Made by a program: the position numbers and the translations under genes. The notes beneath the pieces are model-generated. The model ran no database searches. It had not been told where the DNA came from and saw nothing but the letters and a program-made list of their open reading frames with translations. Below are positions 18,228 to 56,977 of a stretch of DNA of 64,000 nt, one piece after another. The stretch is from Thermoplasmata archaeon (GTDB lineage Archaea; Thermoplasmatota; Thermoplasmata; RBG-16-68-12; JAFNFQ01), in NCBI GenBank assembly GCA_041489255.1, contig JBGPQV010000001.1:224001-288000 (forward strand), given 5' to 3'. Each line of letters opens with the position of its first letter. Positions within the stretch are counted from its first letter, which is position 1.

Positions 18228-20573
18228 ATGCTCCAGCCCCAGTGCCTTCGCTGCGGGGCTATATCCCAGGCGCCTCTGTGCAGCAGGTGCCTTTCATTCC
18301 TCGCGGCGCACAGACCCCTCCTCTTCGATCCAAAGGTGGAACGGGGGACATCGGTGGTCGAGCTGTTGGGAAAGGGCGGGAGGCTCATGGCGACCCTCGA
18401 CCCGAAGAAGCCGCTATTGGCTTTCGACGAACCGCCCCTAGACTGGAAGTCCGAGGCGGCGGCCGAGTTCATCCTGAAACACATGGGCTTCAATGGCGGC
18501 GCTCCAGACAAGCTGACGCTGGGCGACGCCGAACTTCTCCATGATATCCTGTTCCATTTCTCGCAGAGGCCCCTGAACCCGGGGAAACTCGAATCCAGAC
18601 TTCAGGCGTTGAAGAAGCGCCTTGCCGAGGTCCCTTATCTCCCGCAAGTCGAGGCGAACCTCAAGAGTCAGGCGCCGCCAGTGTTCGCACAGGCGGTCGC
18701 CTCGGCGGTCTCGATCACACAGCCGGTCATCGAGCGACTGGAGGAGGCGCGGGGGGTGATTGAGCTTCCTTCACCGCCCCCCGACGAGCCCGAACCCTTG
18801 CCGCCAGAGCCTCCAGATTCCCCCGAGCCGGAGATACCGCCGTTGGAACCGCCGCCGCCAGCGGACGTGCCCCCTGAGCCGGAAGAGCGGCACCCCCAGA
18901 CCCCGCCAGTTCCCGAAATCGTCACCGCGGCCGCCGAGCTCGAGCAGCTTCAAGCGGAGATCCAGAGGCTGTCCATGCTCAAGGCGCAGATGGGGAGGCA
19001 GAGGGACGAGATTCAGAACGTGCTCCAGGTCGAGAGGTCCGCGCTGGAGGAGCGCGAGGTCCTCGTGACCGCCCAGGCGGCCACCTTGCAGTCACGGGCG
19101 AGAGAACTCACGGAGAAGGAGAAGGATCTGAGCTCGAGGGAGGCGGAAACGGCTAGGCAGAGGCGCCGCCTTGACCTGACCGAGTTCCTGATGTCCGTCC
19201 CAGAGCTGGAGAGGAAAGACCTCCAAGTTCTGCGCGCGAACTACCAGGACCTGGAATCGCTCAAGTCCGCGACACTCGACGACCTCATGGCGGTCGGGGA
19301 GCTCGGCGAGGCGAAGTCCAGAGAGCTGTACGCCGCACTGCACCCAAGCTGGTCAGACGAGGACGAGGACCTCGCCACCAGGGCTCAGGCGCTCCTTGAG
19401 GTAGGCGACTACCACGGGGCGCTCCAATGCTACGATTTCATGCTGAGGAAATCCCCCGAGAGCGAGAACCTCTGGTTCAACAAGGCAGAGGTGCTCGGGA
19501 TGATCAATGACCGCGAGGGAGCGCTCCAAGCCTACTCGCGCGTGCTCGAGATCAACAAGAACAATGCGGTCGCGTGGCAGGAGAAGGCAGACCTCCTCTT
19601 CGAAGCGAGCAGGATCGAGGAAGGGATACGGGCCCTCCGCAGCCTCATCGAGGTTGACCACGAGAAGGTCGAGATCGTTCTCGCGAAGGCGGAGCAAGTC
19701 GCTGCACGAGGGATGGAAAGGGACGCGGTCCTGCTCTACAACGCGATCCTGGAGGCGGACCCGGGGAACGTGAAGGCGCACCTCGGACTGGGAGACTGCC
19801 TGGTGAAGCTCGGCGACTGCGACATGGCGGACAAGATGTATACCCGGGCCCTCGGCAGGGACCCTCAGAACCCGCGCGCCCTCTACAGGAAAGGCTCGAT
19901 GCTCAACCGCAGGGGGAGGTGGGGAGCGGCACTGCAACTCTTCAACAGGGCGATCGCTCTGGACTGGAACTACGCCGACCCATGGATCGGCAAGGGCGAG
20001 TTGCTGCTCAAGCAGGGAAAACCGTCTGAGGCCTTGGACTGCTACCAGAAGGCAATCGAATTCGGACCTGAAAGGGCAGACGCCTGGGCGGGCAAGGCCT
20101 TGGTGCATCTGGCCAGAGAGGAGACCGAGCAGGCCAACGCCGCGATGGCGAAAGCGGAGGAGCTCGAGCCCGAGAGCGAATCGCTCAAGGAAATCAAGAA
20201 GGTCGTCGAGCGCGGCGCTCGAAAGGGCGGTCACGAGCCGCGCAGAGTCATCATCAGGGAGGATTCCGACGAGATCCTGAAGGCCGTCCTGAAGGACTCG
20301 AAGGGAATCAGCGAGTCGCAGATACTGAGGAGACTGGCGGACATGGCCCTCGATGCGGGGGACCTCGAGGAGGCTCTCAAGAGCTACTCGGAGGCCCTCG
20401 CGACGGATGAGAACGATGCCGACGCCTGGTGCGGCAAGGGCCTGGTCCTCCGCAAGATGGGGCGGTTCGAGGAGGCGGCGGAGGCATACGACCGTGCCCT
20501 CAGAATCGACCCGAACAGGGAAGACGCGAGACATGGCCGCGAGGCCTGCGCAAAGGAGGAGGCTGCAAAATGA
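18228..20573 (+). CDS. Zn-finger / Pro-rich / coiled-coil / HhH / TPR multidomain protein
   Basis: CLRC...CSRC, PPPPDEPEP linker, heptad region, LMAVGELGEAKS HhH-like, many TPRs. Confidence 0.85.
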   Translation: MLQPQCLRCGAISQAPLCSRCLSFLAAHRPLLFDPKVERGTSVVELLGKGGRLMATLDPKKPLLAFDEPPLDWKSEAAAEFILKHMGFNGGAPDKLTLGDAELLHDILFHFSQRPLNPGKLESRLQALKKRLAEVPYLPQVEANLKSQAPPVFAQAVASAVSITQPVIERLEEARGVIELPSPPPDEPEPLPPEPPDSPEPEIPPLEPPPPADVPPEPEERHPQTPPVPEIVTAAAELEQLQAEIQRLSMLKAQMGRQRDEIQNVLQVERSALEEREVLVTAQAATLQSRARELTEKEKDLSSREAETARQRRRLDLTEFLMSVPELERKDLQVLRANYQDLESLKSATLDDLMAVGELGEAKSRELYAALHPSWSDEDEDLATRAQALLEVGDYHGALQCYDFMLRKSPESENLWFNKAEVLGMINDREGALQAYSRVLEINKNNAVAWQEKADLLFEASRIEEGIRALRSLIEVDHEKVEIVLAKAEQVAARGMERDAVLLYNAILEADPGNVKAHLGLGDCLVKLGDCDMADKMYTRALGRDPQNPRALYRKGSMLNRRGRWGAALQLFNRAIALDWNYADPWIGKGELLLKQGKPSEALDCYQKAIEFGPERADAWAGKALVHLAREETEQANAAMAKAEELEPESESLKEIKKVVERGARKGGHEPRRVIIREDSDEILKAVLKDSKGISESQILRRLADMALDAGDLEEALKSYSEALATDENDADAWCGKGLVLRKMGRFEEAAEAYDRALRIDPNREDARHGREACAKEEAAK

Positions 20574-22471
20574 GCGAGACAGGCAGTAGCCTCCCCAGCG
20601 TCGTCAGGCTCGAAGAGGCCATGGAAGCCGGCCACAAAGCCATGCGCTTGGAACGCTGGAAGGACGCCATGGGCTTCTTCCGGATGTCCACGGAACTCAA
20701 GCCGCTATACGTCGAGGCGTGGCTCGGCCTGGCGATGGCCCTGAGGCGCAGCGGGAATCTCCGCGGAGCGGTCGATTCCTACCGCAGGTCACTCGATATC
20801 GATTTCAGCAACAGGGATGCTTGGACCGGTCTCATCGAGGTGCTCCACGAACTGGGGATGTACAAGCAGGAGATCGAGGCGTGCGACTGCTTCCTGCGTT
20901 TCAACTCGAGAGCTGATGGCGCTCTTTTGAACAAGGGCGTGGCGCTGCATTCCCTCGGGAAACTGGAGGCCGCCCTGGATTGCTTCACGCAGGCCGCCGA
21001 TCGCAGGCCGGACAATGTGGCGGCGCTCAACAACAAGGGCGCCGTACTGCTCAGGCTCGGACGGCTTGAGGATGCTCTGGAGGCTTTCGATTGGGCGCTG
21101 ACATTCGAACCTCATCACGACGATGTCCTGAGGAACCGCTGCCTGCTGCTGATCCGCCTCGGGCGTTACAGCGAGGCTGTGCGCGCGGCGGAACAGATGC
21201 TCGCGGTGAAAGAGGAAGGATGGCTCTGGATGCTGAAGGGGCTCGCCCACGCCGAGCTCAGGGAAGTGCCTCTCGCGCTGCAATCGCTCGAGAGAGCGAG
21301 GGAACTCGACTCGAATCTCGAAGGACTGGAAGAGGCCCTCGAAAGGACTCGCAAGCTCAAGGCGACCATGGAGGAAGCGGAGAGGAGACTGCCCGACGGA
21401 GTGTCGGAGCAAAGGAAGGGAGCGGAGACTCCTGTCGCCGATCAACTTCAGATTCCTCCTCAAGGAATCGCCGTGGTCCTCCTCCATCTCGGCTACCCGA
21501 CGGAGGCCCTGAGCATCTGGCAACAGTCGATGGACAAGGACTGCCCCGACGACTGGCTCGGGCTGGGAAAGGCGTTGATGGCGGGCGGAGAGAGACATGC
21601 AGGGGAGAGGTGCCTCTCCGAGGCCGCCAAGCGGGCCTGGGGGGATGGAAACGCGACCGAGTTCCCCACCGACGAACTCCCTTCACTTTGGCGGGAAATC
21701 TCGAAGCATGTCTCCGAGGAACGCAAGAATGAGGCCATGGATCTGCTCTCCCGGGCACTGGAGTACAGGGGAGATCTGGAGCACGGCTGGGAGTGGCTCG
21801 GGGTGCTGAGGGCCTTGGACGGCCAGCTGGTCGCGTCGGAGGCAGCCCTGCGCCAAGCGACGGATGTTGAGCCCGACTATGCTACGGCTTGGAGCAACCT
21901 AGGCGCGGTCCTCATAAGTCAATGTAAACTGAACGAAGCATCAAACGCCCTCCGCACCGCCCTGGTGATCGATCCGAATCACGCCGAAGCGCTCAACAAC
22001 CTGGGCCTCGTCGAGTTGAGGCTCGGCAACTGCACCGAAGCACGGGAATCGCTGCGCAGGGCGATCAAGATCAAGGAGCACCCGCAGACCTGGCTGATCC
22101 TCGCCGCAGTGATGGAGAAGATGAACCGGTGGCGGGAAGCGGAGCACTGCTACGAGAAGACCCTCGCACTCGATCCGAAGAATGCGATGGCGGTGGCAGG
22201 ACTCGCGAGGACAAGGGGCAAGATCGGCTCTCGCACGAAAGCCATGATCGACAAGGGCAGCAGGCGGCTGATGCACATCAGAGGCGTGGGACCGAGCAGG
22301 GCCAGGGCGCTGGCCAAGGCGGGATACACATCGCCCAAGGCTATTGTCGAAGCTCCGCTCGCCGACATCTCAACGCTGCCCGGTTTCAACAAATCCGTCG
22401 CGGCGGAAATCAGGAAGACCGCGCGTCAGCTCCTCATGAAGCGGAACCCGCGAAGGTCCCCGGGCAGGTAG
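20570..22471 (+). CDS. TPR protein with C-terminal HhH domain
   Basis: ATGA overlap with the upstream gene and GGAGG RBS; TPRs; IRGVGPSRA..L..AGY and LPGF HhH motifs. Confidence 0.85.
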   Translation: MSETGSSLPSVVRLEEAMEAGHKAMRLERWKDAMGFFRMSTELKPLYVEAWLGLAMALRRSGNLRGAVDSYRRSLDIDFSNRDAWTGLIEVLHELGMYKQEIEACDCFLRFNSRADGALLNKGVALHSLGKLEAALDCFTQAADRRPDNVAALNNKGAVLLRLGRLEDALEAFDWALTFEPHHDDVLRNRCLLLIRLGRYSEAVRAAEQMLAVKEEGWLWMLKGLAHAELREVPLALQSLERARELDSNLEGLEEALERTRKLKATMEEAERRLPDGVSEQRKGAETPVADQLQIPPQGIAVVLLHLGYPTEALSIWQQSMDKDCPDDWLGLGKALMAGGERHAGERCLSEAAKRAWGDGNATEFPTDELPSLWREISKHVSEERKNEAMDLLSRALEYRGDLEHGWEWLGVLRALDGQLVASEAALRQATDVEPDYATAWSNLGAVLISQCKLNEASNALRTALVIDPNHAEALNNLGLVELRLGNCTEARESLRRAIKIKEHPQTWLILAAVMEKMNRWREAEHCYEKTLALDPKNAMAVAGLARTRGKIGSRTKAMIDKGSRRLMHIRGVGPSRARALAKAGYTSPKAIVEAPLADISTLPGFNKSVAAEIRKTARQLLMKRNPRRSPGR

Positions 22472-44861: not shown

Positions 44862-45689
44862 ATGCAACTGACACTACAATCCAGGGTGAAGCTCAACAAC
44901 GGCGTCGAGATGCCGATGCTGGGATTGGGCGTCTGGCAGATGGCGCAGGGTATCGAGACACAACGCGCCGTCAAGTCTGCTCTGGGCGTTGGCTATCGCC
45001 TCATCGACACCGCCAAGCTCTACGCGAACGAGAGAGACGTCGGCATCGCCGTCGGGGAGAGCGAGATTCTCCGCGAAGAGGTGTTCGTGACAACCAAGCT
45101 CTGGAACACGGACCACGGCTTCGAGCCTGCGATCAAGGCTTTCAACAGGAGCCTGCACGAACTCGGGTTTGACTATGTCGATCTCTACCTGATACATTGG
45201 CCTGTGGCGCCTCTGAGGGGAGACAGTTGGCGGGCTTTGGTGAGACTCCTGGAAGAGGGGAAGTGCCGGGCAATCGGGGTCAGCAACTACACCGTCGACC
45301 ATCTCCGGGGACTCTTGAGGGACTCCTCAGTAGTGCCGGCGGTCAACCAGGTCGAGTTCAGCCCATTCCTCTTTCAGGAGGAACTCATGGACTCCTGTCA
45401 AGATCACAACATACAGCTTGAGGCCTACAGCCCGTTGACGAAGGGAGCGAGACTAGGCGACCCGAAGCTGAGACCCTTCGCGGCAAAGTATCACAAGACC
45501 GCCGCCCAGATTCTCATCCGATGGGCGTTGCAGCACAACGTCGTCGTGATACCCAAGTCCAGCAGACCGGAAAGGATCCTGGAGAACGGTCAGGTGTTCG
45601 ACTTCGAGATCTCATCCGCCGACATGAAGATGCTCGATTCTCTCGGAGAGGATTATCGCACCGCCTGGGACCCCACGAACACCCGATAG
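44862..45689 (+). CDS. Aldo/keto reductase
   Basis: GLGVW, IDTAKLY, TKLWN, DLYLIHWP, IGVSN, YSPL, IPKS. Confidence 0.95.
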   Translation: MQLTLQSRVKLNNGVEMPMLGLGVWQMAQGIETQRAVKSALGVGYRLIDTAKLYANERDVGIAVGESEILREEVFVTTKLWNTDHGFEPAIKAFNRSLHELGFDYVDLYLIHWPVAPLRGDSWRALVRLLEEGKCRAIGVSNYTVDHLRGLLRDSSVVPAVNQVEFSPFLFQEELMDSCQDHNIQLEAYSPLTKGARLGDPKLRPFAAKYHKTAAQILIRWALQHNVVVIPKSSRPERILENGQVFDFEISSADMKMLDSLGEDYRTAWDPTNTR

Positions 45690-45734
45690 CGGGCCCGCGT
45701 GCATCGGCCCGCGTGTCGCTCGCGCCAACTGACC

Positions 45735-45911
45735 TCAGGTTCGTCTGTCCCCGCCCTGGCCCTTCTGCGCCTTGTACCGCGCCGAGTCGAGGTCGAGGTC
45801 CAGGTCCTCTTCCTTCGCCTTGCCCGGGCTGAATACCTTGCCCGCCTCGAACTCCAGCTTCTTGTCCTGCTTCTTCTTCTTGCGCGGCGCCTGCTCAACC
45901 TGCTGTTCCAT
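45735..45911 (-). CDS. Putative Pup/UBact-like protein modifier (58 aa, not in ORF track)
   Basis: MEQQVEQAPRKKKKQDKKLEFEAGKVFSPGKAKEEDLDLDLDSARYKAQKGQGGDRRT*; GGAGG RBS; start overlaps the PafA/Dop gene end by 17 nt; charged, likely disordered. Confidence 0.75.
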   Translation of the reverse strand: MEQQVEQAPRKKKKQDKKLEFEAGKVFSPGKAKEEDLDLDLDSARYKAQKGQGGDRRT

Positions 45912-47193
45912 GTATATCCTCCCATCTGTGAGCGTAGGGGTCGGGTAGGTCTATGCGGCGGCGGTCGCCGTCGCCGACCATCACAGTGGACCAATCGATG
46001 GACTCGATATTGAACCTGTCGCAGATTTCCCGCCTCAGCGCGGCCCTGGTGTCGCTTGGCGGCTCCTTGATCGCCTTGGCGATGTCGCCGTCCTTCAGCA
46101 GTCTATCCACGAGCCCTTTCGACTGCCTCTTGTAGAAGATGCCTCTCTCAGCTCCGACCTCCGAGTACTGCTTGCAGGCCATCATCTCGACATCGGGTCC
46201 GCTCTTGCTCTCCTTGGCCTCCTGGATGGCGAAGTACCTGTCCAGCCATTCGACCCGCCTGGCGAGTTCTTTCGATTTCCTGCCCTCGATGCCATCGAGG
46301 ACTTCCTCGAGGATTTTCAACGCGCGCTTCTCTCGATCATCCTCCACGATGTTCTCTATCTTCGCCAGGTAATATCTCTGGATCTCCACAGGCGAGACCT
46401 TCTTGCCGCTATTGAGGTGAACCTTCCAGGCTTCCGGGTTCGTCTTCTCGACGTTCTCCCACATGTCCTCGACCGGCGACTTGAGGCGGGGAGCGTCGCC
46501 GAGTTCGTCCATCTCCATGAGCTGCAGTATGGCGGTGGTGGTGAAGTGCCGCAGCAGGATCGCCACCTCGTTCATCAGCGCATCGCCGCAGATGACGTGC
46601 AGCCTGCGCCAGCTCGAGCGGTCCGAGTGTGGCTCGTCGCGCGTGTTGATGAGCCCGGTGTTGTGCATGGTCTCGCCGCTGACGACTGCGCTCGTCAAAT
46701 ATATCATCGGCGATAGGACATACTTCCCGTCGAGGATGTCTCCCGCCCCCGTGTAGATGAACCTGGTGCTGAAGTGCGGCACTAGCTCCTTCACGAACTT
46801 CTCAGGGAAGTCCACGGACCTGTCGACGATGTAGTTCTCATGGCTCCCGTAGCTGACTCCCTCGGGTGACGTGTTGTTCTTGAACGCCCAGATCCTCTCC
46901 CCGCTTGAGAGGTACTTCTCCTCCGTCACCCGCCTCAGCCAATCGATCACCTTCTCGCCCGCCTTCTCCCACAGGAGCATGTCGAATGGGTTGCTCACCT
47001 CGCAGGTGCTCAGCTCGAAGTGACCGACGTCGTAGTAGCAGCGAGAGCCGTTGGTGATGAACTCCCCCGCCAGCTGAAGGTCGCTCTCGCTCAACAGCTC
47101 GAGCGCGAGGGTATGAGGGTCGAACCCCTTGGAGGCAAGCTTCTTCGAGTACATCGTGTACTCGAGTTCTGTCCCCTGGATCCTCTTTCTCAT
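45895..47193 (-). CDS. PafA/Dop family (Pup ligase/deamidase) enzyme
   Basis: GTELEY, NGSRCYYDVGH.E, KNN....SYGSHENY, INTRDEPH, RRLHVICGD, PPSDTRA. Confidence 0.95.
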   Translation of the reverse strand: MRKRIQGTELEYTMYSKKLASKGFDPHTLALELLSESDLQLAGEFITNGSRCYYDVGHFELSTCEVSNPFDMLLWEKAGEKVIDWLRRVTEEKYLSSGERIWAFKNNTSPEGVSYGSHENYIVDRSVDFPEKFVKELVPHFSTRFIYTGAGDILDGKYVLSPMIYLTSAVVSGETMHNTGLINTRDEPHSDRSSWRRLHVICGDALMNEVAILLRHFTTTAILQLMEMDELGDAPRLKSPVEDMWENVEKTNPEAWKVHLNSGKKVSPVEIQRYYLAKIENIVEDDREKRALKILEEVLDGIEGRKSKELARRVEWLDRYFAIQEAKESKSGPDVEMMACKQYSEVGAERGIFYKRQSKGLVDRLLKDGDIAKAIKEPPSDTRAALRREICDRFNIESIDWSTVMVGDGDRRRIDLPDPYAHRWEDIHGTAG

Positions 47194-47195
47194 CC

Positions 47196-48752
47196 TTATC
47201 CTACCATCGGGTCTCCGCCGGCGCTCTTGAATATCTCCCTCTGCCTCTTCTCGTAGAGGTAGACATCGGTTATCGCGTGCTCCTTCGACTCTTCCTCAAT
47301 CGCCTGCTGGAAGTCGTTCAGGTTCAGCCCCTCCTTTTCCCGCTCGGCCTTCTTGAGGTTGAGAATCCTCTTGACGTAATTCTTCTTGGCGGTCTTCACG
47401 ACGGCGGCGATGATTGCTCCGGAGACTATGTCCTTCCTCTTGACGGTCTTGATCGCTTCCTTGGCGTCCGGATCGGTTTTCACCCTGACCCACTTGCTCT
47501 CTCCGTAGAACTCATCAAGCACTGCATTCCTCAGGTACCGGATCGCCTTCTCGTGGTCGCCTTGCTCCCTGACGATGCCCGCTTCGACCGGAAGATCGCC
47601 TGCCAAGTAGATTGAGAGGATCTCCTCGGCCATCTTCCTGCTTGGCCTGGGTATCTCGATTATCTCGTCGAACCGACCGGGCCTAAGGAGTGCCGGATCC
47701 AAGAGATCGGCCCTGTTGGTCGCGCCTATCACGAATACGTCGTGAAGCTCCAGCAGGCCGTCCATCTCGCTGAGTATCTGCGCGATTATGTTCTTGTGCA
47801 CACCTGAGGTGTCCATGTAGCCCCTCACGGTGAAGACCGCCTCGATCTCATCGAAGAAGACGATGCTTGGCCGTCTCTCGTGTGCTTGGCGGAATATCTC
47901 CTTGATGAGCCGCTCGCTTTCCCCCACCCACTTGCTCAGCACGTCGGCGATGCTGACGTTGAAGAATGTCATGTCGTTCTCGGTCGCGACGGCCTTCACC
48001 ATGAGGGTCTTCCCGCATCCAGGCGGACCGTGAAGCAGTATGCCCCGGGGCGCCTCCAGGTTGATCTTCTTGAACAGCTTCTGCTCCTTGAACGGGAGAA
48101 TCGTCACATCCCTGATCCTCTCGATAGCCTCCCCCAGTCCGCCAATCTGCGCATAGTGGACATTCGGCTTCTCACCCAGCAGCAGGTTCTTCACTTCAAG
48201 ATTCGGGAGGACCTCGATCAGCTCCATGGTCGGCGGGAGGACAGATATCTGGAACCCGGGCTTCAGCTTCCCGATGATCTCCTTCTCGGCGGAGACCAAC
48301 CTCTTCTCCATGTCGCCTTCGACAGTGATCACAAGCTTGCCTTCGAGGATGTCAGCGACCTTCGCAATCACTCCTTCATTTCTGGCGTTGCTGCTCTCGA
48401 CAATCGCGTATGTCTGCGGATGAACCCAGACGTACTGCCCTATGTTCAGCGTCGACTTGTCGACGAGGCCTGTGCTGACCTTCAGGAGCTCCATCGACCT
48501 CGCGACCACGACCTGGCTCGCGTCGAGATCCGGTCCTTCCTTCCTGACGACGTAGGCATATAGCAGAGGCGGCTGCTTGATCTTGTTGAATTTCTCCTCA
48601 TAGGCCTTGAGCCTATACTCCCTCTCATCCACCTCATAGCGGAAGGCCTGCAGATCCCTCTCGTACTGCCGCTTGAGTCGGTCGAGCTTCTCCTCGTACT
48701 CTTCCTTCATTTCGTCGAGCGATTCCTGATCCTTTTGCTTGGTTTCCGGCAT
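47196..48752 (-). CDS. arc: ARC/Mpa-type proteasomal AAA+ ATPase
   Basis: N-terminal coiled coil, QPP motif, two OB-like segments, GPPGCGKT, KWVGE, FFDE, DPALLRPGRFD, SGAII...V..AKK. Confidence 0.88.
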   Translation of the reverse strand: MPETKQKDQESLDEMKEEYEEKLDRLKRQYERDLQAFRYEVDEREYRLKAYEEKFNKIKQPPLLYAYVVRKEGPDLDASQVVVARSMELLKVSTGLVDKSTLNIGQYVWVHPQTYAIVESSNARNEGVIAKVADILEGKLVITVEGDMEKRLVSAEKEIIGKLKPGFQISVLPPTMELIEVLPNLEVKNLLLGEKPNVHYAQIGGLGEAIERIRDVTILPFKEQKLFKKINLEAPRGILLHGPPGCGKTLMVKAVATENDMTFFNVSIADVLSKWVGESERLIKEIFRQAHERRPSIVFFDEIEAVFTVRGYMDTSGVHKNIIAQILSEMDGLLELHDVFVIGATNRADLLDPALLRPGRFDEIIEIPRPSRKMAEEILSIYLAGDLPVEAGIVREQGDHEKAIRYLRNAVLDEFYGESKWVRVKTDPDAKEAIKTVKRKDIVSGAIIAAVVKTAKKNYVKRILNLKKAEREKEGLNLNDFQQAIEEESKEHAITDVYLYEKRQREIFKSAGGDPMVG

Positions 48753-48993: not shown

Positions 48994-50145
48994 TCATGAC
49001 AGCCCGTGATACTTGAACGCTTTCCTCTTGACGCCGTCGACGACCTTCTTCACCGCACTCGACACAGCGCCGCCATCCTGTGTTTCCTCGGAATCCCTCA
49101 GCGTCCCGCCTTTCGGGGCGATCGCGTATGTGATCTTGCAGTACTCCATCCATTCGATCGGCAGGTCGTTTGCCAGCTCCTTCCCGAGCATCCTGGCGAA
49201 GAAGAGAGCCCATATCCTCGGGCAGATCATGATATCATAACCGCCGCCAGTCACCGCCACCCATCGCCCGCCGCCATATCTCCTCGAAATCTCGTCGAAG
49301 TCCCTGCCGATCTCCTCGTAAGCCCGCGTGGTCAGGTTCAGGTGGGCCAGCGGGTCGGCGAAGTGCGCGTCAGCGCCGAGCTGGGTGAACAACACCTCTG
49401 GCTTGAACGCCTCTGCCAAAGGGATGACGATTTCTTTGAAGGCATGCAGATAGCTCGCGTCTCCCGAGTATGGGGGCAACGGGACGTTCACGGTGTAGCC
49501 CTCCCCGTCACCCGTGCCGATCTCATCGATGTCGCCTGTCCCTGGGAATAAATAGTGACCGTCCTCGTGGATTGAGACTTTCAGGACTCGGGGATCGTCG
49601 ATGAATATCGATTGCACACCGTCTGCATGATGAACATCTATGTCGACGTACATCACCCTGCTCAGGCCATATTTTCCGAGCAACCGCTTTATGCCAACGG
49701 CAATATCATTCAGGAGACAAAACCCGGACGCTCTCGCAGGCATGGCATGGTGGAACCCGCCACCTAGGTTCATGGCCTTTTCCGTCTCCCCTTTCGCGAC
49801 CGCATCGCAGGCGAGCATGGTCCCGCCGACATGGAGGCTTGCCGCCTCGAACATCCCTGCGAACACCGGATTGTCCGAGATGCCCAGACCGTGTGAGAAC
49901 GATTGGCCGTCCGGGTGCTCGCTCAAGTGCTCGAGAACCTCTAGGTAGCCTCTGTCGTGCACGGCGATCAGGTCTTCGTATTCGGCGAGGCTGGGTTTCA
50001 TTTCGACCGCGCCCTTCGGCCCTATGAGCCCGTAATCCTGCATGAGCATCTTCGTGAGGAGGAGCCGCTCCTCCCTCATTGCATGCCCTTCCCCGAAATT
50101 GTATTTTAGGTACTTGTCATCATAGACAAGGACAGGGCTGGCCAT
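48994..50145 (-). CDS. Zn-dependent lysine deacetylase (AcuC/HDAC family)
   Basis: GGFHHA, SGFC..ND, DIDVHHADG, FPGTG, QLGAD, GGGY. Confidence 0.93.
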   Translation of the reverse strand: MASPVLVYDDKYLKYNFGEGHAMREERLLLTKMLMQDYGLIGPKGAVEMKPSLAEYEDLIAVHDRGYLEVLEHLSEHPDGQSFSHGLGISDNPVFAGMFEAASLHVGGTMLACDAVAKGETEKAMNLGGGFHHAMPARASGFCLLNDIAVGIKRLLGKYGLSRVMYVDIDVHHADGVQSIFIDDPRVLKVSIHEDGHYLFPGTGDIDEIGTGDGEGYTVNVPLPPYSGDASYLHAFKEIVIPLAEAFKPEVLFTQLGADAHFADPLAHLNLTTRAYEEIGRDFDEISRRYGGGRWVAVTGGGYDIMICPRIWALFFARMLGKELANDLPIEWMEYCKITYAIAPKGGTLRDSEETQDGGAVSSAVKKVVDGVKRKAFKYHGLS

Positions 50146-50989: not shown

Positions 50990-53900
50990 TTAGATTTCGT
51001 CTTCCTCCTCGGTCTCCGCCTCTTCGATCTCCACCTTCTTCTCCGCTCTCTTCTCTTCCTTGGGCATCTGTTTCGGCTGCTGCTTCTCCGGCTGCAACTC
51101 CTCCTCTTCCTCGATTTCGCCCAAGTCCTCCTGAGGACCCTGGAGAGCGCGAATCTTGCGGCTTATCGCGAAGTACATCCCGATGAGACCGACGAACAGC
51201 ATCACGATCAGCAACACCATCCCCATCATCAGCACGTTGCCCAGGCCGTCCAGGTCTGACTTGAGCGTCCTGATGTCGCCCGACGTCTGGTTGAGCGCGT
51301 CGAGCCTGCCCTGGATCGTGGTCAGCTGATTGTTGACATTGGTGATATCCTGACTCTGCTGGTTGATCGTGTCATTCATGTCTGCGATCTGGTTGTCCAG
51401 GTTATCGATTTGGTTGTTGAGGTCATTAATCATGCCGAGCAGCAACGTGATTTGATTCTGCAAGCCGGCGATATCAGGCGCGATGTAGGTCACGTCTCGC
51501 GTCTGCTGGTTCGTGTTGCCGGCCTGGTCGGTCGCCGTGATATAAATCGTATTGACTCCGTCAACCAAGAGGGCCACGATTGTATCGAAGCCTCCTGTCG
51601 AGTCCACCATAGCCATCTGTCCGTTGACTGTGATCGTTGCGCTGGGCTCGGTCGTTCCCCTGACCTCCACCGATGGGACTGTCGTCTGGTACAACGGCGC
51701 GGGCATCGCAATCGCCAGTGTCGGCGCGACCGTGTCGAGTGTGATGGTCTTGAGCACCGCCGCCATGTTCCCTGCGACGTCTGTCGCATTGACCCAGATG
51801 TTCTTCCCTCCGTCGCTTCCCAGGCCCACCGTCGTCGTGAAGCTGCCGTCGCCCGCCACCGCAACCGGTGCTGAGTTGACGGCCACAGTGGCAGAAGGCT
51901 CGGTCTGACCGGAGACAGTTAAGGCCGGATTGTTGGTGTACGCTCCTGTTGGAGACGTGATCGTCACGGCTGGCGATACCGTGTCCACGGTGACGCCGAT
52001 GATCTCGACATGGGCGTTACTAGCGGGATCTGTCGCCACTACCCGGATTGAATTGCTGCCTTCTTTCAATGCAATAGTGACCGCAAAATCACCGACATTG
52101 TTCACCGCAGCGTTGATGCCCTCAATCACGACCGACGCCCCTCGTTCGGTCGTGCCCGCCACCACCACCGTCCTCTCTTTGATGTAGGAACCTGCAGTGG
52201 GGGAGGTGACCGTGAGTGCTGGAGGTTGGGTGTCGAGTTCGATGTCCTTATGGAGCAAGGCGGTATTGCCGACCAAGTCTGTCGCCTCTATCTGAATGGT
52301 GTTCGGCCCCTCGACAAGGTTCGTCGAACTGCTGAACGCACCATTCGTGGTCGCTGTCGGCACTCCATTGATCAGCACCGTGGCGATGGTCGACTCCGTG
52401 TAACCGACCACGTTCACCGCAGGCTGATTCGTGATGCTGACCGCAGGAGACGTGAGGACTATGATGGGTGCCGAATTGTCCACACCGAACGTGAACATTA
52501 GTGAAGCGAGGTTCGGCGTGGTGGCGAGGTCGTACATCTGGATGTCCACCGTATGCTGTCCCTCGCTCAGCAGGAAGGTCAGGTTCCACCACAATTCTCC
52601 GGCCACGATTCTCGCAGACGAGGTCACATCGCGCCCGTCCAAGGTCAGGAGTATGCTGTTCATGTCGACGCCCGAGTAGAACGCTCCCCGAACGTCATCG
52701 AAGGAGACGTCGATTATCGGGACGTCGGATGTCCTGTAGTCGATTCCTGCCGAGGGTGAGTTCAGGGTTATCGTAGGCGGTGTCGTATCGCGCGCCATGA
52801 GCAGCACCGGCATCTCGATGGTCGTCGGCGCCCCCATTGGCCCGATGAAGATGACGCCATAGTAATCACCTTCGACATCGGGGATATCGTAGTCGATATC
52901 GAAAGTGTAAGGCGTGTTGGCGACGATTGGACCAGAGGGCACGTTCGCCGGATCCAGATCCAGTCCCGCTCTCAGGTCGACCGTCAGGTCGAAAGTCGCA
53001 CCCGGCATCGGCACGGTGAATCCGTGCACCTCGATTCTGTACGTCCCGTCGTCTGGCAGCGTCAGCTTCACCCTCTCGTTGGCTGTCGGCGAGGTCGAGG
53101 AACCGACGGGCACTTCGCCGCCGCCCGGCAGCTCGTAATACACGTAAAGGTCGAGATCGATGGGGAACGCCGAAGTCAATGTGATGTCCATCAGTCCCGC
53201 GTGAACAGAGTCGACAAGGAAGCTGACCCGTTCATCCTGGGTGATTGGATAGACATACGTTGTCGGCTCGGAGACCCCGTAGGCCCTGACCTCCATCCCG
53301 TCGGGCATATCCATCGTCGACATGAAGTCGAACGTCTTCACGCCCGAGCTCTGCGACAGCTGTTCGGTCCACGGGAATGGATTGACGTTCACGAAACCCG
53401 TCGCTCCCGAGAACACTTCCGAAGGCCCTTCGCCCGCGTAGAGGACGTTGTGCAGGGCAATCTCGTGCAGACCATTCGCGGCAGGCCCTGAGACCCATTC
53501 CTCCGGACCGCCTGTCGCCGTATTGAATAACCAAGTGCCCGCTCCTATGTTCATGTTCGGGCTGCCGCCGACTTGGGAAAGTGCGTATGGTCCGAAAAGG
53601 GAAGGCATCGCATTCGAGAAGTCGTCCGGGGTAGGACCGAATAATAGCGTGTCTATGTCGGTCGGATAGTTGTTCCATTTCGTGTGTATGAGGAAACGGG
53701 TGCCGCCCGTGATCGGCGTGCTGTCCGGCACGTCCATGAAATAGAACCGCCAATCCCCCGCTTCCGGTCGCCATGACCAGTCCTGGCCGCCATACATGCG
53801 GCCATTGTCATAGTAGCTCGTGTTGCTGGTGTCCTCCTGGAAGGTTATGTCCTGACTGTTCCCGGCGACGTTTATCACGATCGGTATGACCGTCTCGTTC

Positions 53901-56788
53901 GAACCGGTATCCTTGAGGATCACCATCGCGCTGTAGACGCCCACCGCGGCCGTTGGCGGCACACTCACCGTCACTCTGAGCGTCTGCGTCGCTCCGGCAC
54001 CGAGCGTCACGGTCGCCTTGTCTTCCGTGATCCACGCCGAATCAGCAAGCTCATAGAACTCCAGGACGACGTGAACCCTCGTGCTCGGAATCGCCGGATC
54101 CCGGTATCTGTGGATAACGCCGAACAGTAGAGCATCGTCGACCCTCGTGAACGGATCGTGCACGAATGCGTTCTGGACGTTCGAAAATCCGTATGCATAG
54201 GTGAACCTCATGTATTCTACCTGCCCGCCAACGTTGTCGAGCTCGCCCGAGTTCACCACACCGTTGCCGTTCAAATCGTCCCAATAAAGGCCGTTGCCAT
54301 TGAGGTCCTTCCAATCGTAGAACAGCGCCCTGTAAGCGCTGTTCATGGTGTAATCGTACTCTGGGTCGAACGATGCGAAGTCGGTGTACGCAATCCCCCG
54401 TACGAATTTGGTGGTCGGATAAGCCGAGAGCATCGCGCTGACGTTCCACAGGTAGTCGGGCCTATTGCTGCTGGGACTGCTTTCATCCGAGTTGTTCGAC
54501 CAGATGTCAAACGTCCGTTCTCCCGCCTTCCTGAGGACGGCATCCGAGATCGACCACTGCTGAGCCGAACCCCCTCGGTTCGTGAGCTGGAAATCTTTCC
54601 ATGTCGTGTCTCCTGCGCTCATCACATGCGCGAAAGAGGGGTAGTCAGTGCCTCTGTAGCCGCCAGGCGTCCAAGATGATGGTGAAGCACGCACCCCATA
54701 GAGTCCATTGGCAAGCATCGTCGAACGTTCCGCGTTCGTGAGCCCGGCACCCATGACGAGCGGATCATAGTTGATGTTATCCGCGCCGTTCATCAGGAAC
54801 TCCTTGACCATGGTGTTCGTGGGATACACGGACGCGCCTTGTTCGTAGGCGTCATAGATCAACGCAACAATGCCGGCAGTCGCGGGTGAGGACAAGCTCG
54901 TTCCTCCCCAGATGCTCCAGGAATTCGTGCCGTTGCTCTGGCCTGCGGATACGGTATTGATGGCGTTGTCGCCCGACGCCCATGCGCCCACAGTCACCAC
55001 GTCGGGATCGACGTTGCCCAGAGAACTCGGTCCCCGGTTGGACCACGGCTGGACATCGCCGAAGGTCCACATAGGCCCGTTCTCCCAGGTCGTCTTCGCC
55101 CCACTGTAGTAGCTGGTCGATGCACCCACCGATATCACCGATTTACTGCCGCCCGGCGGAGTCACAGTCCCGAACCCATAGCCGCCATTTCCCGTCGATG
55201 CAACGTAGGTCGTGCCGTCGTAGTACGAAGTCAGCAAGTCGATGAAGCGCGACTCGTAATCCCAGCCGTCATTGTCGACATTAGAGGTACCGTAGCTTGA
55301 GCTGCTTACCATCGCCTCGTCGCCAGTCCCCGGGACTCCGTCGTATCCCTCAGCGGCGAACGGGTAGATGTCCGTCCAGAAACCTCCGAAGTAGATGTCA
55401 CCAACGGCGACTATCCTGGCGTCGGGCGCGAAGCCCTGCACCCTTCCTGTCACATTCTGCGCCACCACAGCGGAGGAACACATGGTGCCGTGGTCTCCTC
55501 CCGCTGCATATGCATCACCAATCATGAATGCAGTCAAATTCCCGTTGCCAGGTATCGTATTAATCAGTCCGTAACGGTCCGCCACAACGTCCGAGTACGG
55601 AATGGGATTGACGCCGTTCGCGATGAAATAGATTAGACCGCCAGAAACGTCGGGCATTCCGTCGCCCCAATCCCAGGAGGATTCGTCATAGCCGCCGGTG
55701 CTCGCGTCCCTGTAGTCAGCGTAGGAGATTGGGCTGAAGATGTCCACGGGTTTGTCGTTAAGGAAGTTGTCATCGTCGTTGAGGTCGACGTAGATTGTAT
55801 CGTAGACGAATGGAACCGCGCTGTCTGTCAGAAGGACGCCTGGGCTGTGGCTGCCGAACCTCGCCGCCAGCGTCGGCGCCGGGTGTACGCCGAGATGGTA
55901 CCAACCGCTCGCGCTCGGGACGCTGGTGACGTTGTAGTTCCTATCATTGAAGAGTGGCAGGAGACCGTTGACATCAGCCGTGGCATTGAAACTCGTGTCG
56001 ACGTACCACGAGGGGGCCGCAGGGTATGAAGCCCCGCCGAAATAGAGGTAAACGTACATCGAGAACGGATCGAACGCAATCGGCCAGAGATAGTAGGGCG
56101 AGGAGGTGTTCTCCTCAATGGCCCACGTACCCAACAGGTCAGGATTGGCGAAGTCGACGCCCGAATCCAAGATTGCGACCCTGACGTCAGAGCCCGTGAA
56201 GCCTCTCGCCCAGGCGTCCGTCACATGGTGGCCCTGGGCCGCTCTTATTGTGTTCACGCCGGGTTCGGCCGCACTGTCTGGACTCTCCTGACGTCCATTC
56301 TCCGATTCCGGATTGAGTATCTCCAGTGGCTGCGGGACCACGAACAACGATACCCCACCGACGCTGTCGAGATAGGCTATCTTGGCTGCGATGACTGCAG
56401 GCATGTCGACGATCACGGGTCGGAGGCCCGTGCTTTTTGAGGGCGCCTTGCCAACCGGGGTATCCACGCCCATCGCCCTCAGCGTTCTGCCGAGTGCCGC
56501 AGGGTCCGTTGTGTAGACTGTGACCCTGACCACCTGCTCCGGATTTTGCATGATCATGTCCTTGAGGCTCACGGAGATCTTGTTCAAGTATGACGTGTCA
56601 GGATAGAGGCCGCTTAGGCTGGTGAACGGCGACACCTGATTCTTCTCGCTCTGGCTTGCCGTCGCCGTGGCGGTGACGGTTCTTGATGCCGAGACCCGTG
56701 GCACCGAGACCAAGACCGCGAGCGACGATATCAAGACCAACGCTGCGACGACGATTGCCCCACTTCTTCCACCGACCGCTGTCTTCAT
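50990..56788 (-). CDS. Giant membrane-anchored S8 (subtilisin/pyrolysin-like) protease
   Basis: Signal peptide, ILDSGVD, HGT, GTSLSSP triad; PPC and Ig-like repeats, coiled coil, C-terminal TM and acidic tail; GGAGGT RBS. Confidence 0.92.
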   Translation of the reverse strand: MKTAVGGRSGAIVVAALVLISSLAVLVSVPRVSASRTVTATATASQSEKNQVSPFTSLSGLYPDTSYLNKISVSLKDMIMQNPEQVVRVTVYTTDPAALGRTLRAMGVDTPVGKAPSKSTGLRPVIVDMPAVIAAKIAYLDSVGGVSLFVVPQPLEILNPESENGRQESPDSAAEPGVNTIRAAQGHHVTDAWARGFTGSDVRVAILDSGVDFANPDLLGTWAIEENTSSPYYLWPIAFDPFSMYVYLYFGGASYPAAPSWYVDTSFNATADVNGLLPLFNDRNYNVTSVPSASGWYHLGVHPAPTLAARFGSHSPGVLLTDSAVPFVYDTIYVDLNDDDNFLNDKPVDIFSPISYADYRDASTGGYDESSWDWGDGMPDVSGGLIYFIANGVNPIPYSDVVADRYGLINTIPGNGNLTAFMIGDAYAAGGDHGTMCSSAVVAQNVTGRVQGFAPDARIVAVGDIYFGGFWTDIYPFAAEGYDGVPGTGDEAMVSSSSYGTSNVDNDGWDYESRFIDLLTSYYDGTTYVASTGNGGYGFGTVTPPGGSKSVISVGASTSYYSGAKTTWENGPMWTFGDVQPWSNRGPSSLGNVDPDVVTVGAWASGDNAINTVSAGQSNGTNSWSIWGGTSLSSPATAGIVALIYDAYEQGASVYPTNTMVKEFLMNGADNINYDPLVMGAGLTNAERSTMLANGLYGVRASPSSWTPGGYRGTDYPSFAHVMSAGDTTWKDFQLTNRGGSAQQWSISDAVLRKAGERTFDIWSNNSDESSPSSNRPDYLWNVSAMLSAYPTTKFVRGIAYTDFASFDPEYDYTMNSAYRALFYDWKDLNGNGLYWDDLNGNGVVNSGELDNVGGQVEYMRFTYAYGFSNVQNAFVHDPFTRVDDALLFGVIHRYRDPAIPSTRVHVVLEFYELADSAWITEDKATVTLGAGATQTLRVTVSVPPTAAVGVYSAMVILKDTGSNETVIPIVINVAGNSQDITFQEDTSNTSYYDNGRMYGGQDWSWRPEAGDWRFYFMDVPDSTPITGGTRFLIHTKWNNYPTDIDTLLFGPTPDDFSNAMPSLFGPYALSQVGGSPNMNIGAGTWLFNTATGGPEEWVSGPAANGLHEIALHNVLYAGEGPSEVFSGATGFVNVNPFPWTEQLSQSSGVKTFDFMSTMDMPDGMEVRAYGVSEPTTYVYPITQDERVSFLVDSVHAGLMDITLTSAFPIDLDLYVYYELPGGGEVPVGSSTSPTANERVKLTLPDDGTYRIEVHGFTVPMPGATFDLTVDLRAGLDLDPANVPSGPIVANTPYTFDIDYDIPDVEGDYYGVIFIGPMGAPTTIEMPVLLMARDTTPPTITLNSPSAGIDYRTSDVPIIDVSFDDVRGAFYSGVDMNSILLTLDGRDVTSSARIVAGELWWNLTFLLSEGQHTVDIQMYDLATTPNLASLMFTFGVDNSAPIIVLTSPAVSITNQPAVNVVGYTESTIATVLINGVPTATTNGAFSSSTNLVEGPNTIQIEATDLVGNTALLHKDIELDTQPPALTVTSPTAGSYIKERTVVVAGTTERGASVVIEGINAAVNNVGDFAVTIALKEGSNSIRVVATDPASNAHVEIIGVTVDTVSPAVTITSPTGAYTNNPALTVSGQTEPSATVAVNSAPVAVAGDGSFTTTVGLGSDGGKNIWVNATDVAGNMAAVLKTITLDTVAPTLAIAMPAPLYQTTVPSVEVRGTTEPSATITVNGQMAMVDSTGGFDTIVALLVDGVNTIYITATDQAGNTNQQTRDVTYIAPDIAGLQNQITLLLGMINDLNNQIDNLDNQIADMNDTINQQSQDITNVNNQLTTIQGRLDALNQTSGDIRTLKSDLDGLGNVLMMGMVLLIVMLFVGLIGMYFAISRKIRALQGPQEDLGEIEEEEELQPEKQQPKQMPKEEKRAEKKVEIEEAETEEEDEI

Positions 56789-56977
56789 TCCCTTGACCTC
56801 CTTTGATAAGACAGAGCAACACAGTTGCTCAGCGAAATTCGATATTCCCCGCATGCTGCGTGCACCGGGATGAGGGGCGCAACATCGAGCGGCGTAATAA
56901 AAGTTGGTGCACCACATCCCGTTCGAAGGGAGGCGGCAAGGCGAGGTTTAATGAATGCGCATGCCCTCCTCCGCTTC

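Follow-up and report, generated by a model that had tools for sequence, protein, structure and literature searches.

The window, by which we mean the whole 64,000-nt stretch of archaeal DNA analysed here, carries on its minus strand a unit of three genes that encode, in this order, an AAA ATPase resembling ARC/Mpa, an enzyme of the PafA/Dop family and, last, a small protein (Table 1). The ORF of the small protein overlaps the upstream enzyme gene by 17 nt. The window further encodes Orc1/Cdc6, a Cdc48/VAT-type ATPase and haloarchaeal-type HTH regulators.

Table 1. Coordinates of the three genes and of the features of the small protein gene within the window.
Feature	Position	Strand	Basis or remarks
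518-aa ARC/Mpa-like AAA ATPase (coiled coil, OB domain, AAA domain)	47196..48752	minus	TIGR03689
432-aa PafA/Dop-family enzyme	45895..47193	minus	PF03136, E 8.8e-86
GGAGG, Shine–Dalgarno-like	45918..45922	minus	6 nt 5' of ATG, within the 3' end of the enzyme gene
58-aa small protein gene, Pup-like candidate	45735..45911	minus	TGA stop at 45735-45737; homologues and codon-level purifying selection
Residues 17-32 (KKLEFEAGKVFSPGKA), predicted enzyme-binding segment	45816..45863	minus	Complex model; residue conservation
Motif K50-G51-Q52-G53-G54-D55-R56	45744..45764	minus	Q52 codon CAG at 45756-45758; 203-member tally
Tail G53-T58 (GGDRRT) after the Q/E position	45738..45755	minus	Residues fixed, codons vary; at least 6 residues in the family

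Translation of the small ORF gives MEQQVEQAPRKKKKQDKKLEFEAGKVFSPGKAKEEDLDLDLDSARYKAQKGQGGDRRT followed by a stop, and its final codons are GAC AGA CGA ACC TGA, in agreement with the original prediction, which had described a 58-amino-acid ORF with this C terminus. The same prediction had called the ORF unannotated, which is only partly correct, as some homologues are listed in public records under the name ‘hypothetical protein’. No Pfam or NCBIfam family matched the small protein, even at E 10. A homologue search returned 103 homologues, mostly 56–65 amino acids in size, and a profile built on 63 sequences retrieved 106 representatives from 1.84 billion representative proteins; the family comprises about 200 distinct members.

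In 25 of 29 loci, counted by eye, a GGAGG occurs no more than 25 nt before the start codon, and the remaining 4 have GGAG or GAGG; because this site lies inside the coding sequence of the enzyme, its conservation may partly stem from the protein. Contigs from two other DNA studies span the small ORF with 0 listed differences inside it and no indel, and the contig of a close relative differs by four substitutions, also with no indel. The agreement of independent contigs and the conservation of the ORF among relatives exclude an assembly error or a hidden stop directly after the Gly-Gln, an explanation that had been raised together with the prediction.

Contigs from one metatranscriptome library are 90–99% alike over positions 45600-45769, 45786-45818, 46081-46403 and 47130-47297, leaving most of the small ORF uncovered. 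They belong to a relative, neither strand nor transcription can be read from them, and DNA may be present in such libraries.

We compared 34 distinct nucleotide versions of the small gene, of which 2 are unrelated hits of the regular expression and 32 are genuine. All 32 retain GGDR[RK], and although the residues of the tail are fixed, the codons are free: four Gly codons are used at each Gly and both GAC and GAT at the Asp, and the Arg codons number six at position 56 and four at position 57. The stop codon, taken across all 34 rows, is TAG in 24, TGA in 8 and TAA in 2, and its position is always identical. Fixed residues combined with synonymous codon variation indicate purifying selection on the amino acids of the tail. 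We conclude that the small ORF is a real gene under purifying selection.

The neighbouring enzyme scores 289 bits against PF03136 (Pup_ligase; cut-off 25) and falls below the cut-offs of both more specific models, with 250.2 bits for TIGR03686 (PafA; cut-off 551.3) and 246.5 bits for TIGR03688 (Dop; cut-off 492.3). It is the single Pup_ligase gene in a 2.74-Mb genome that is 96% complete, and public records name its homologues ‘PafA2 family protein’. Compared with solved structures, it scores higher against Dop (192 bits) than against PafA (140 bits). The Dop-loop, described as a stretch of 40–65 residues before strand β2 that occurs in all Dop and in no PafA proteins (Cui 2021, PMC8599861), is absent: the alignment of the enzyme to Corynebacterium glutamicum (Cglu) PafA starts at residue 2 and contains no insert, and its alignment with Dop begins at Dop residue 72, facing enzyme residue 33. 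Across 34 archaeal sequences, the Mg/ATP-binding and catalytic residues G7, E9, E11, R51, Y53, D55, H58 and E60 are invariant, as are the runs H118-E119-N120-Y121, T184-R185-D186-E187 and R196-R197-L198-H199.

In Cglu PafA, R201 is reported to make a weak salt bridge with the C terminus of Pup; T217 in the α-loop of Dop binds the last residue of Pup, and in the solved PafA and Dop structures the C-terminal domain closes the active site on one side (Cui 2021, PMC8599861). Thr179 of the archaeal enzyme aligns with R201 of PafA and with the Arg of both solved Dop sequences. The dipeptide at this point is Thr-Gly in 47/47 loci of this order and in 27/27 loci of other archaeal lineages, and Arg-Pro in a homologue from Nonomuraea; the Nonomuraea PafA-like gene, which came from a search of a plasmid collection, has no Pup within 9 kb. 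Loss of the Arg that contacts the C terminus of the tag would, judging from these alignments, fit a reactive residue without a free C terminus. Members of this order have a Thr as the counterpart of Dop T217 (SGETMHN), and other archaeal lineages lack it (SGGNLSN). Because this residue differs among the archaeal lineages, a shared deamidase mechanism is not evident, and a simple ‘Dop-like’ reading of the enzyme does not follow. Hecht 2020 (PMC7947786) lists PafA and Dop in bacterial phyla only, with single-copy relatives in Planctomycetes, and argues for a promiscuous ancestor. One enzyme that meets both Q-type and E-type tags would need both activities.

The best NCBIfam model for the ATPase is TIGR03689, although its score of 349.6 bits is below the cut-off of 504.75, and residues 42–466 align to Mpa/ARC chains. 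In 15/15 loci, the ATPase has the C terminus ...GADPMVG, so that the penultimate Tyr of the GxYx motif, which docks Mpa on the proteasome (PMC6466877), is missing and a link to the proteasome is not supported. The genome encodes two proteasome subunits on other contigs, a true PAN that scores above the curated cut-off and two Cdc48-like proteins.

The arrangement of the unit recurs in related genomes. Of 29 loci from relatives, 28 have the small ORF immediately after the PafA/Dop-like gene, and there it ends in KG[Q/E]GGDR[R/K]x and a stop; the sole miss is a contig that ends 50 nt past the enzyme gene. It was also found in 15/15 larger loci, all of which likewise have the ATPase gene adjacent to the enzyme gene (15/15). 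In a sample of the class, the enzyme occurs in 46 of 401 genomes, all 46 of them in the window’s own order, and it was not found in the other orders sampled. In a sample of the phylum (401 genomes, among which related genomes are not independent samples), the enzyme family occurs in 22 genomes and the small-protein family in 22, with both in 21, that is, in 21 of the 23 genomes that have either. The two exceptions are a 75%-complete genome with only a fragment of the enzyme and a 72%-complete genome with only the small gene. This co-occurrence extends to several families in other classes of the phylum and, in genomes in which the small gene does not adjoin the enzyme gene, the latter was found elsewhere in 5/5 tested. 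All named sources of homologues of the small protein and the enzyme are Thermoplasmata, Methanobacteriota or Euryarchaeota archaea, which identifies the host as an archaeon of the Thermoplasmata type, a point that the original prediction had missed.

No protease gene lies within the conserved three-gene unit in the 15 larger loci, and the unit contains no JAMM or E1 gene. We considered two neighbours and rejected both. An HDAC-like gene, a candidate isopeptidase, is located upstream in 12/15 loci of this order, but in 0/19 loci from a pattern scan (each no more than 8 kb long); given this distribution, we treat it as probable lineage synteny. A gene for an S8 protease, a candidate processor of the tail, is nearby in only 2/15 loci.

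The motif K-G-[Q/E]-[G/A]-G-x-R is conserved across the whole family, within a common pattern that reads ...LEFxxGKVF...DFxLDLDxARYKAxKG[Q/E][G/A]Gx-R and is followed by tails of widely differing length. A tally of 203 distinct motif-bearing members gives, at position 52, Q in 140, E in 58 and a different residue in 5 (Q or E in 198/203). At position 53, 150 members have G and 48 have A; at position 55, 153 have D, 24 have T, 12 have N and 10 have S; and R56 is present in 200. G54 occurs in 203/203, at a position where the search pattern demanded G. The number of residues after position 52 ranges from 6, the length found in exactly 109 members, to 96, and 0 of 203 chains end at the Q/E or within 5 residues beyond it. 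In the 63-sequence alignment of near relatives, F21, V26, F27, A48, K50, G51, G53, G54, D55 and R56 are invariant, and L19, E20, E22, G24 and K25 are kept in at least 90% of sequences.

In a maximum-likelihood tree, we labelled each of 29 enzymes with the Q or E of its neighbouring small gene. The labels require 8 changes, compared with a mean of 7.9 for shuffled labels, and supported branches force at least 6 of them. Position 52 thus flips freely between Q and E, even between near-identical genomes, and almost never takes another residue, while the residues around it stay constant. In this, it behaves as the last residue of Pup does.

A scan with a degenerate DNA pattern, using one genome per species, returned 19 loci, of which 16 carry archaeal labels, mostly Thermoplasmatota. 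One locus labelled ‘Proteobacteria bacterium’ holds a true family member, and two Qipengyuania loci are chance matches in an unrelated ORF. The scan also revealed a second subgroup with the C terminus KGQAGTRTKAVA and a stop, the gene for which comes after a PafA/Dop-like gene in 10 loci.

Searches for relatives of known tags were negative at permissive thresholds. PF05639 (Pup) had 0 matches in the whole genome at E 10, and the family profile, run against the PDB at the same threshold, found no Pup chain; its sole match there was an SH3-like chain (E 1.3), which we took as chance. When 79 family members were scanned against Pfam, the only matches were scattered and attributable to chance, with each Pfam family in no more than 2 members. 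The best score in the ESM Atlas was 0.78, to unnamed bacterial clusters, which is below the level reached by shuffled proteins.

AlphaFold models the small protein alone at low confidence (mean pLDDT 65, pTM 0.25), with helices at residues 23–26, 29–37 and 41–49, coil at residues 50–58 and no strands. Pup is described as two helices and an extended tail (Iyer 2008, PMC2588565). We then modelled the complex of the enzyme (34-row alignment) and the small protein (63 rows) with ATP. The median ipSAE was 0.64 (0.60, 0.64 and 0.67 in individual runs), and the best of 3 controls reached 0.01. The pass mark is met by 58/80 solved complexes and 2/110 mismatched pairs, counts that hold only roughly here because we supplied our own alignments and included the ATP ligand; moreover, structures of PafA–Pup and Dop–Pup complexes exist, and likeness to these may account for some of the high score. 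Contacts agreed by at least 70% between runs, and the pLDDT of the small partner was 50–56. Confident contacts involve residues 17–23, 25–27 and 29–32 of the small protein and residues 33, 36–39, 81–89, 347–350 and 368–376 of the enzyme. Enzyme residues 33–39 align beside R32 and R38 of Cglu PafA, which sit beside the Pup-binding groove according to a 2023 paper (PMC10465538). The model therefore supports a predicted interaction in which the small protein docks on the enzyme by its LEFEAGKVF segment (LEFxxGKVF in the family). Residues 33–58, including the C-terminal motif, have no confident placement, so that the complex model does not bear on access of Q52 to the active site and cannot decide between readings in which the reactive residue is internal and those in which the tail is trimmed.

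The small protein resembles Pup in its small size (58 amino acids, within the 50–90 of Pup-type modifiers), in its low-confidence helices followed by an extended tail, in the position of its gene beside those of a PafA/Dop-family enzyme and an ARC-type ATPase, in a glycine-adjacent residue that alternates between Gln and Glu only, and in its predicted binding at the enzyme region equivalent to the Pup groove. It differs in having no detectable sequence similarity to Pup and in that the Q/E is internal throughout the archaeal family, with at least 6 residues after it, and never terminal. The surrounding machinery differs as well. In place of a ligase and a depupylase, there is one archaeal enzyme, which lacks the Dop-loop and has Thr for the Arg that contacts the C terminus; unlike Mpa/ARC, the archaeal ATPase has no GxYx tail; and the proteasome genes are unlinked and of the host’s own archaeal kind, the host being an archaeon. 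Both by sequence and by the terminal G[EQ] that defines the Pup family, the putative archaeal tag lies outside it.

UBact is a Pup-like tag of Gram-negative bacteria (Nitrospirae, Verrucomicrobia and others) that is linked to homologues of PafA, Dop and Mpa and has an R-Y-x-Q-[RK]-x-G-[EQ]-like ending, terminating at G[EQ]. The ARYKAQKGQ of the small protein resembles this ending, and UBact is likewise a tag found outside Actinobacteria. Unlike UBact, the archaeal family runs on with [G/A]-G-x-R, has a single enzyme and occurs in an archaeal host. No NCBIfam family, among which there is presumably a UBact model, hit the small protein at E 10. By analogy, the parts list would nevertheless be that of Pup and UBact tagging: a disordered tag, an enzyme of the glutamine-synthetase fold and a coiled-coil AAA unfoldase.

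Three further systems offer points of comparison. The single-copy relatives in Planctomycetes are similar by description, with one enzyme per genome that is about equally related to PafA and Dop (PMC7947786); the word ‘archaea’ occurs 0 times in the text of Hecht 2020. Unlike ubiquitin and SAMPs, the small protein has no predicted β-grasp strands (at low confidence), and its GG is internal and not terminal. A haloarchaeal family with a CC ending has been described as resembling the Pup domain (Makarova and Koonin 2010, PMC2948915). Literature searches aimed at archaea or Thermoplasmata returned no paper on archaeal tags of the Pup type or on archaeal PafA/Dop systems.

The best explanation for these observations is that the small protein is the intrinsically disordered cognate partner of a single PafA/Dop-type carboxylate–amine ligase and an ARC/Mpa-like unfoldase in Thermoplasmatota. 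Genomic context, co-occurrence and the complex model all support the central proposal of the original prediction, which was a Pup- or UBact-like modifier candidate with a non-terminal Gln beside a PafA/Dop gene.

As to how such a partner might act, the reading that we judge best, although we place it slightly short of an even chance, is a Pup-like tag that keeps its tail and is ligated through a glycine-flanked Gln/Glu inside the chain. Against it, no PafA/Dop-type carboxylate–amine ligase is known to act on an internal Glu, the C-terminal domain closes the active site of the solved enzymes on one side, and sequence homology to Pup or UBact was not detected. All Pup proteins end in G[EQ] and are joined through the γ-carboxylate (Iyer 2008, PMC2588565); because this chemistry takes place at the side chain, an internal Glu could in principle be a substrate. 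Gln/Glu-52 would be the counterpart of the terminal Gln/Glu of Pup and, where Gln is encoded, the same single enzyme would deamidate it. The reactive residue would be internal, and the flanking glycines in G-[Q/E]-[G/A]-G could let a tight loop reach the active site. The G-x-R tail may be kept as part of the recognition motif and not removed, and the ATPase would then engage the tag. A Q/E that is never terminal, the lack of a protease in the unit and the lost Arg together point to ligation through the side chain of an internal Glu, an option beyond the three given in the original prediction. More broadly, and a little more tentatively, we propose pupylation-type tagging that is native to archaea, in several Thermoplasmatota lineages, and in which one hybrid enzyme both deamidates and ligates, acting on the side chain of an internal glycine-flanked Glu and leaving a free tail on the conjugate. 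It is conceivable, as a similarly tentative part of this proposal, that the tail bears an extra Cys-rich module in some lineages.

Alternatively, as the original prediction had considered, the small protein could be a pro-form that a protease trims to a terminal G[Q/E], which would then be deamidated and ligated exactly as in Pup. We consider this unlikely. Known Pup proteins all react through the terminal residue (PMC2588565), the conserved [G/A]-G-x-R could serve as a cleavage signal, and the length beyond the G-x-R core is free (6 to 96 residues after position 52), as would be expected of a discarded propeptide. However, the conserved three-gene unit has no protease, and the tail is lost in 0/203 members although every Pup manages without one. 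In each of the 74 archaeal enzyme loci read, Thr stands in place of the Arg that contacts the C terminus. A Dop-type amidase cleaves side-chain amides and not the main chain (Cui 2021, PMC8599861).

It is also improbable, in our judgement, that the small protein is a non-covalent partner of the enzyme, the ATPase or both, such as a regulator, adaptor or pseudo-substrate, that is never ligated. LEFxxGKVF, and not the Q/E motif, is the only confidently modelled contact, homology to Pup was not detected, and the single enzyme has neither equivalog-level scores nor a Dop-loop, all of which would be compatible with such a role. Yet toggling between Q and E only, within an otherwise invariant Gly-rich motif, is hard to explain without side-chain chemistry, and the enzyme retains every catalytic motif.

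A third route, likewise among the options of the original prediction, is cleavage after G53-G54 to give a di-glycine end as in ubiquitin and SAMPs, activated at the α-carboxylate; it seems very unlikely. SAMP/JAMM systems exist in archaea (PMC2948915), and [G/A]-G is conserved (G54 in 203/203) and followed by a polar residue and Arg. However, the partner enzyme is a ligase of the glutamine-synthetase fold and not an E1, genes for JAMM and E1 proteins are missing from the unit, the model, at low confidence, predicts a helical or disordered chain rather than a β-grasp, and this route gives no reason for the alternation at position 52 between Q and E only. The results that speak against trimming, namely the tail kept in all 203 members, the unit without a protease and the lost Arg, weigh against this route too.

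Finally, the original prediction had also entertained a former stop after GGD, or recent decay, as AGA and CGA are both a single change away from TGA; this option and that of a chance ORF deserve practically no weight, because purifying selection maintains GGDR[RK] in all 32 nucleotide versions: six Arg codons occur at position 56 and four codons at position 57, R56 is found in 200/203 members, and the stop keeps its place whether TAG, TGA or TAA. Of that interpretation, the modifier candidate is therefore supported and the decayed end refuted.

Pupylation has been described as a bacterial system that uses a strictly terminal Gln/Glu and a pair of enzymes, a ligase and a depupylase (Iyer 2008; Hecht 2020; Müller and Weber-Ban 2019; Cui 2021; and a 2025 minireview). 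What is new here is the fixed presence, in archaeal lineages, of a PafA/Dop-family enzyme and an ARC-type ATPase alongside a previously unrecognized small-protein family of about 200 members, which has no match in Pfam, NCBIfam or solved structures and in which the Q/E is always internal. Attachment through an internal Glu, if true, would amount to a branch-point chemistry without known precedent among ubiquitin-like and Pup-like tags. If the protein is indeed conjugated, the archaeal system would provide a natural test of the use of an internal Glu by this ligase fold, as well as a natural single-enzyme system in which to study the partitioning between ligase and amidase activities, a question posed by Hecht 2020. 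It would also raise the question of what role such a tag has in cells already equipped with PAN, Cdc48 and SAMP-type systems, and it would mean that Pup-type tagging reaches a second domain of life.

Third-position variation across the small gene, the candidate for a Pup-like modifier, tracks the minus-strand frame, and the two open reading frames that overlap it on the opposite strand are therefore taken as spurious rather than as genes. The ARC-like ATPase of the unit ends in ...GADPMVG in all 15 relatives read, and the penultimate tyrosine of the HbYX/GxYx type is absent from this C-terminus in each of them (15/15). Besides this ATPase, the genome that contains the window encodes a genuine PAN, as well as two ATPases that are Cdc48-like.

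Features of the window discussed here, with positions and strands
Feature	Position	Strand	Description
Two large TPR-repeat proteins	18228-22471	+	side by side, 781 and 680 aa
104-aa ORF	45699-46013	+	opposite strand, overlaps small gene
58-aa ORF	45772-45948	+	opposite strand, overlaps small gene
C-terminus of ARC-like ATPase	47196-47230	-	ends ...GADPMVG
HDAC/AcuC-type deacetylase gene	48994-50145	-	PF00850, E 3e-89; immediately upstream of ATPase
S8 subtilase protein	50990-56917	-	1975 aa; four Glucodextranase_B repeats, Ig-like domains

Homologues of the HDAC/AcuC-type gene lie upstream of the unit of ATPase, PafA/Dop-family enzyme and small gene in 12 of the 15 relatives' loci, at about 0.2 to 4 kb as estimated from locus coordinates; none was found in the 19 loci of the degenerate DNA pattern scan, most of them from other archaeal lineages and none longer than 8 kb. 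This neighbour could be an amidohydrolase partner of the unit, or could simply reflect lineage synteny. Homologues of the subtilase protein occur near the unit in two of the 15 relatives. Elsewhere in the window, the second TPR-repeat protein (680 aa) carries a C-terminal helix-hairpin-helix domain.

One pattern-scan locus, L051, lies on a contig of a metagenome-assembled genome labelled 'Proteobacteria bacterium'. Its small gene is almost identical to those of the Thermoplasmatota loci L054 and L056, and Pup_ligase matches are present in the same genome, which may be mislabelled or mis-binned.

Some distant members of the small-protein family, recovered by profile search (P0264, P0265, P0272, P0281, P0308, P0311, P0315 and P0327), carry three to four cysteines with CxxC-like spacing in the tail that follows KG[Q/E]AGxR. 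These cysteines suggest that the putative reactive residue is followed by a small module that binds metal.
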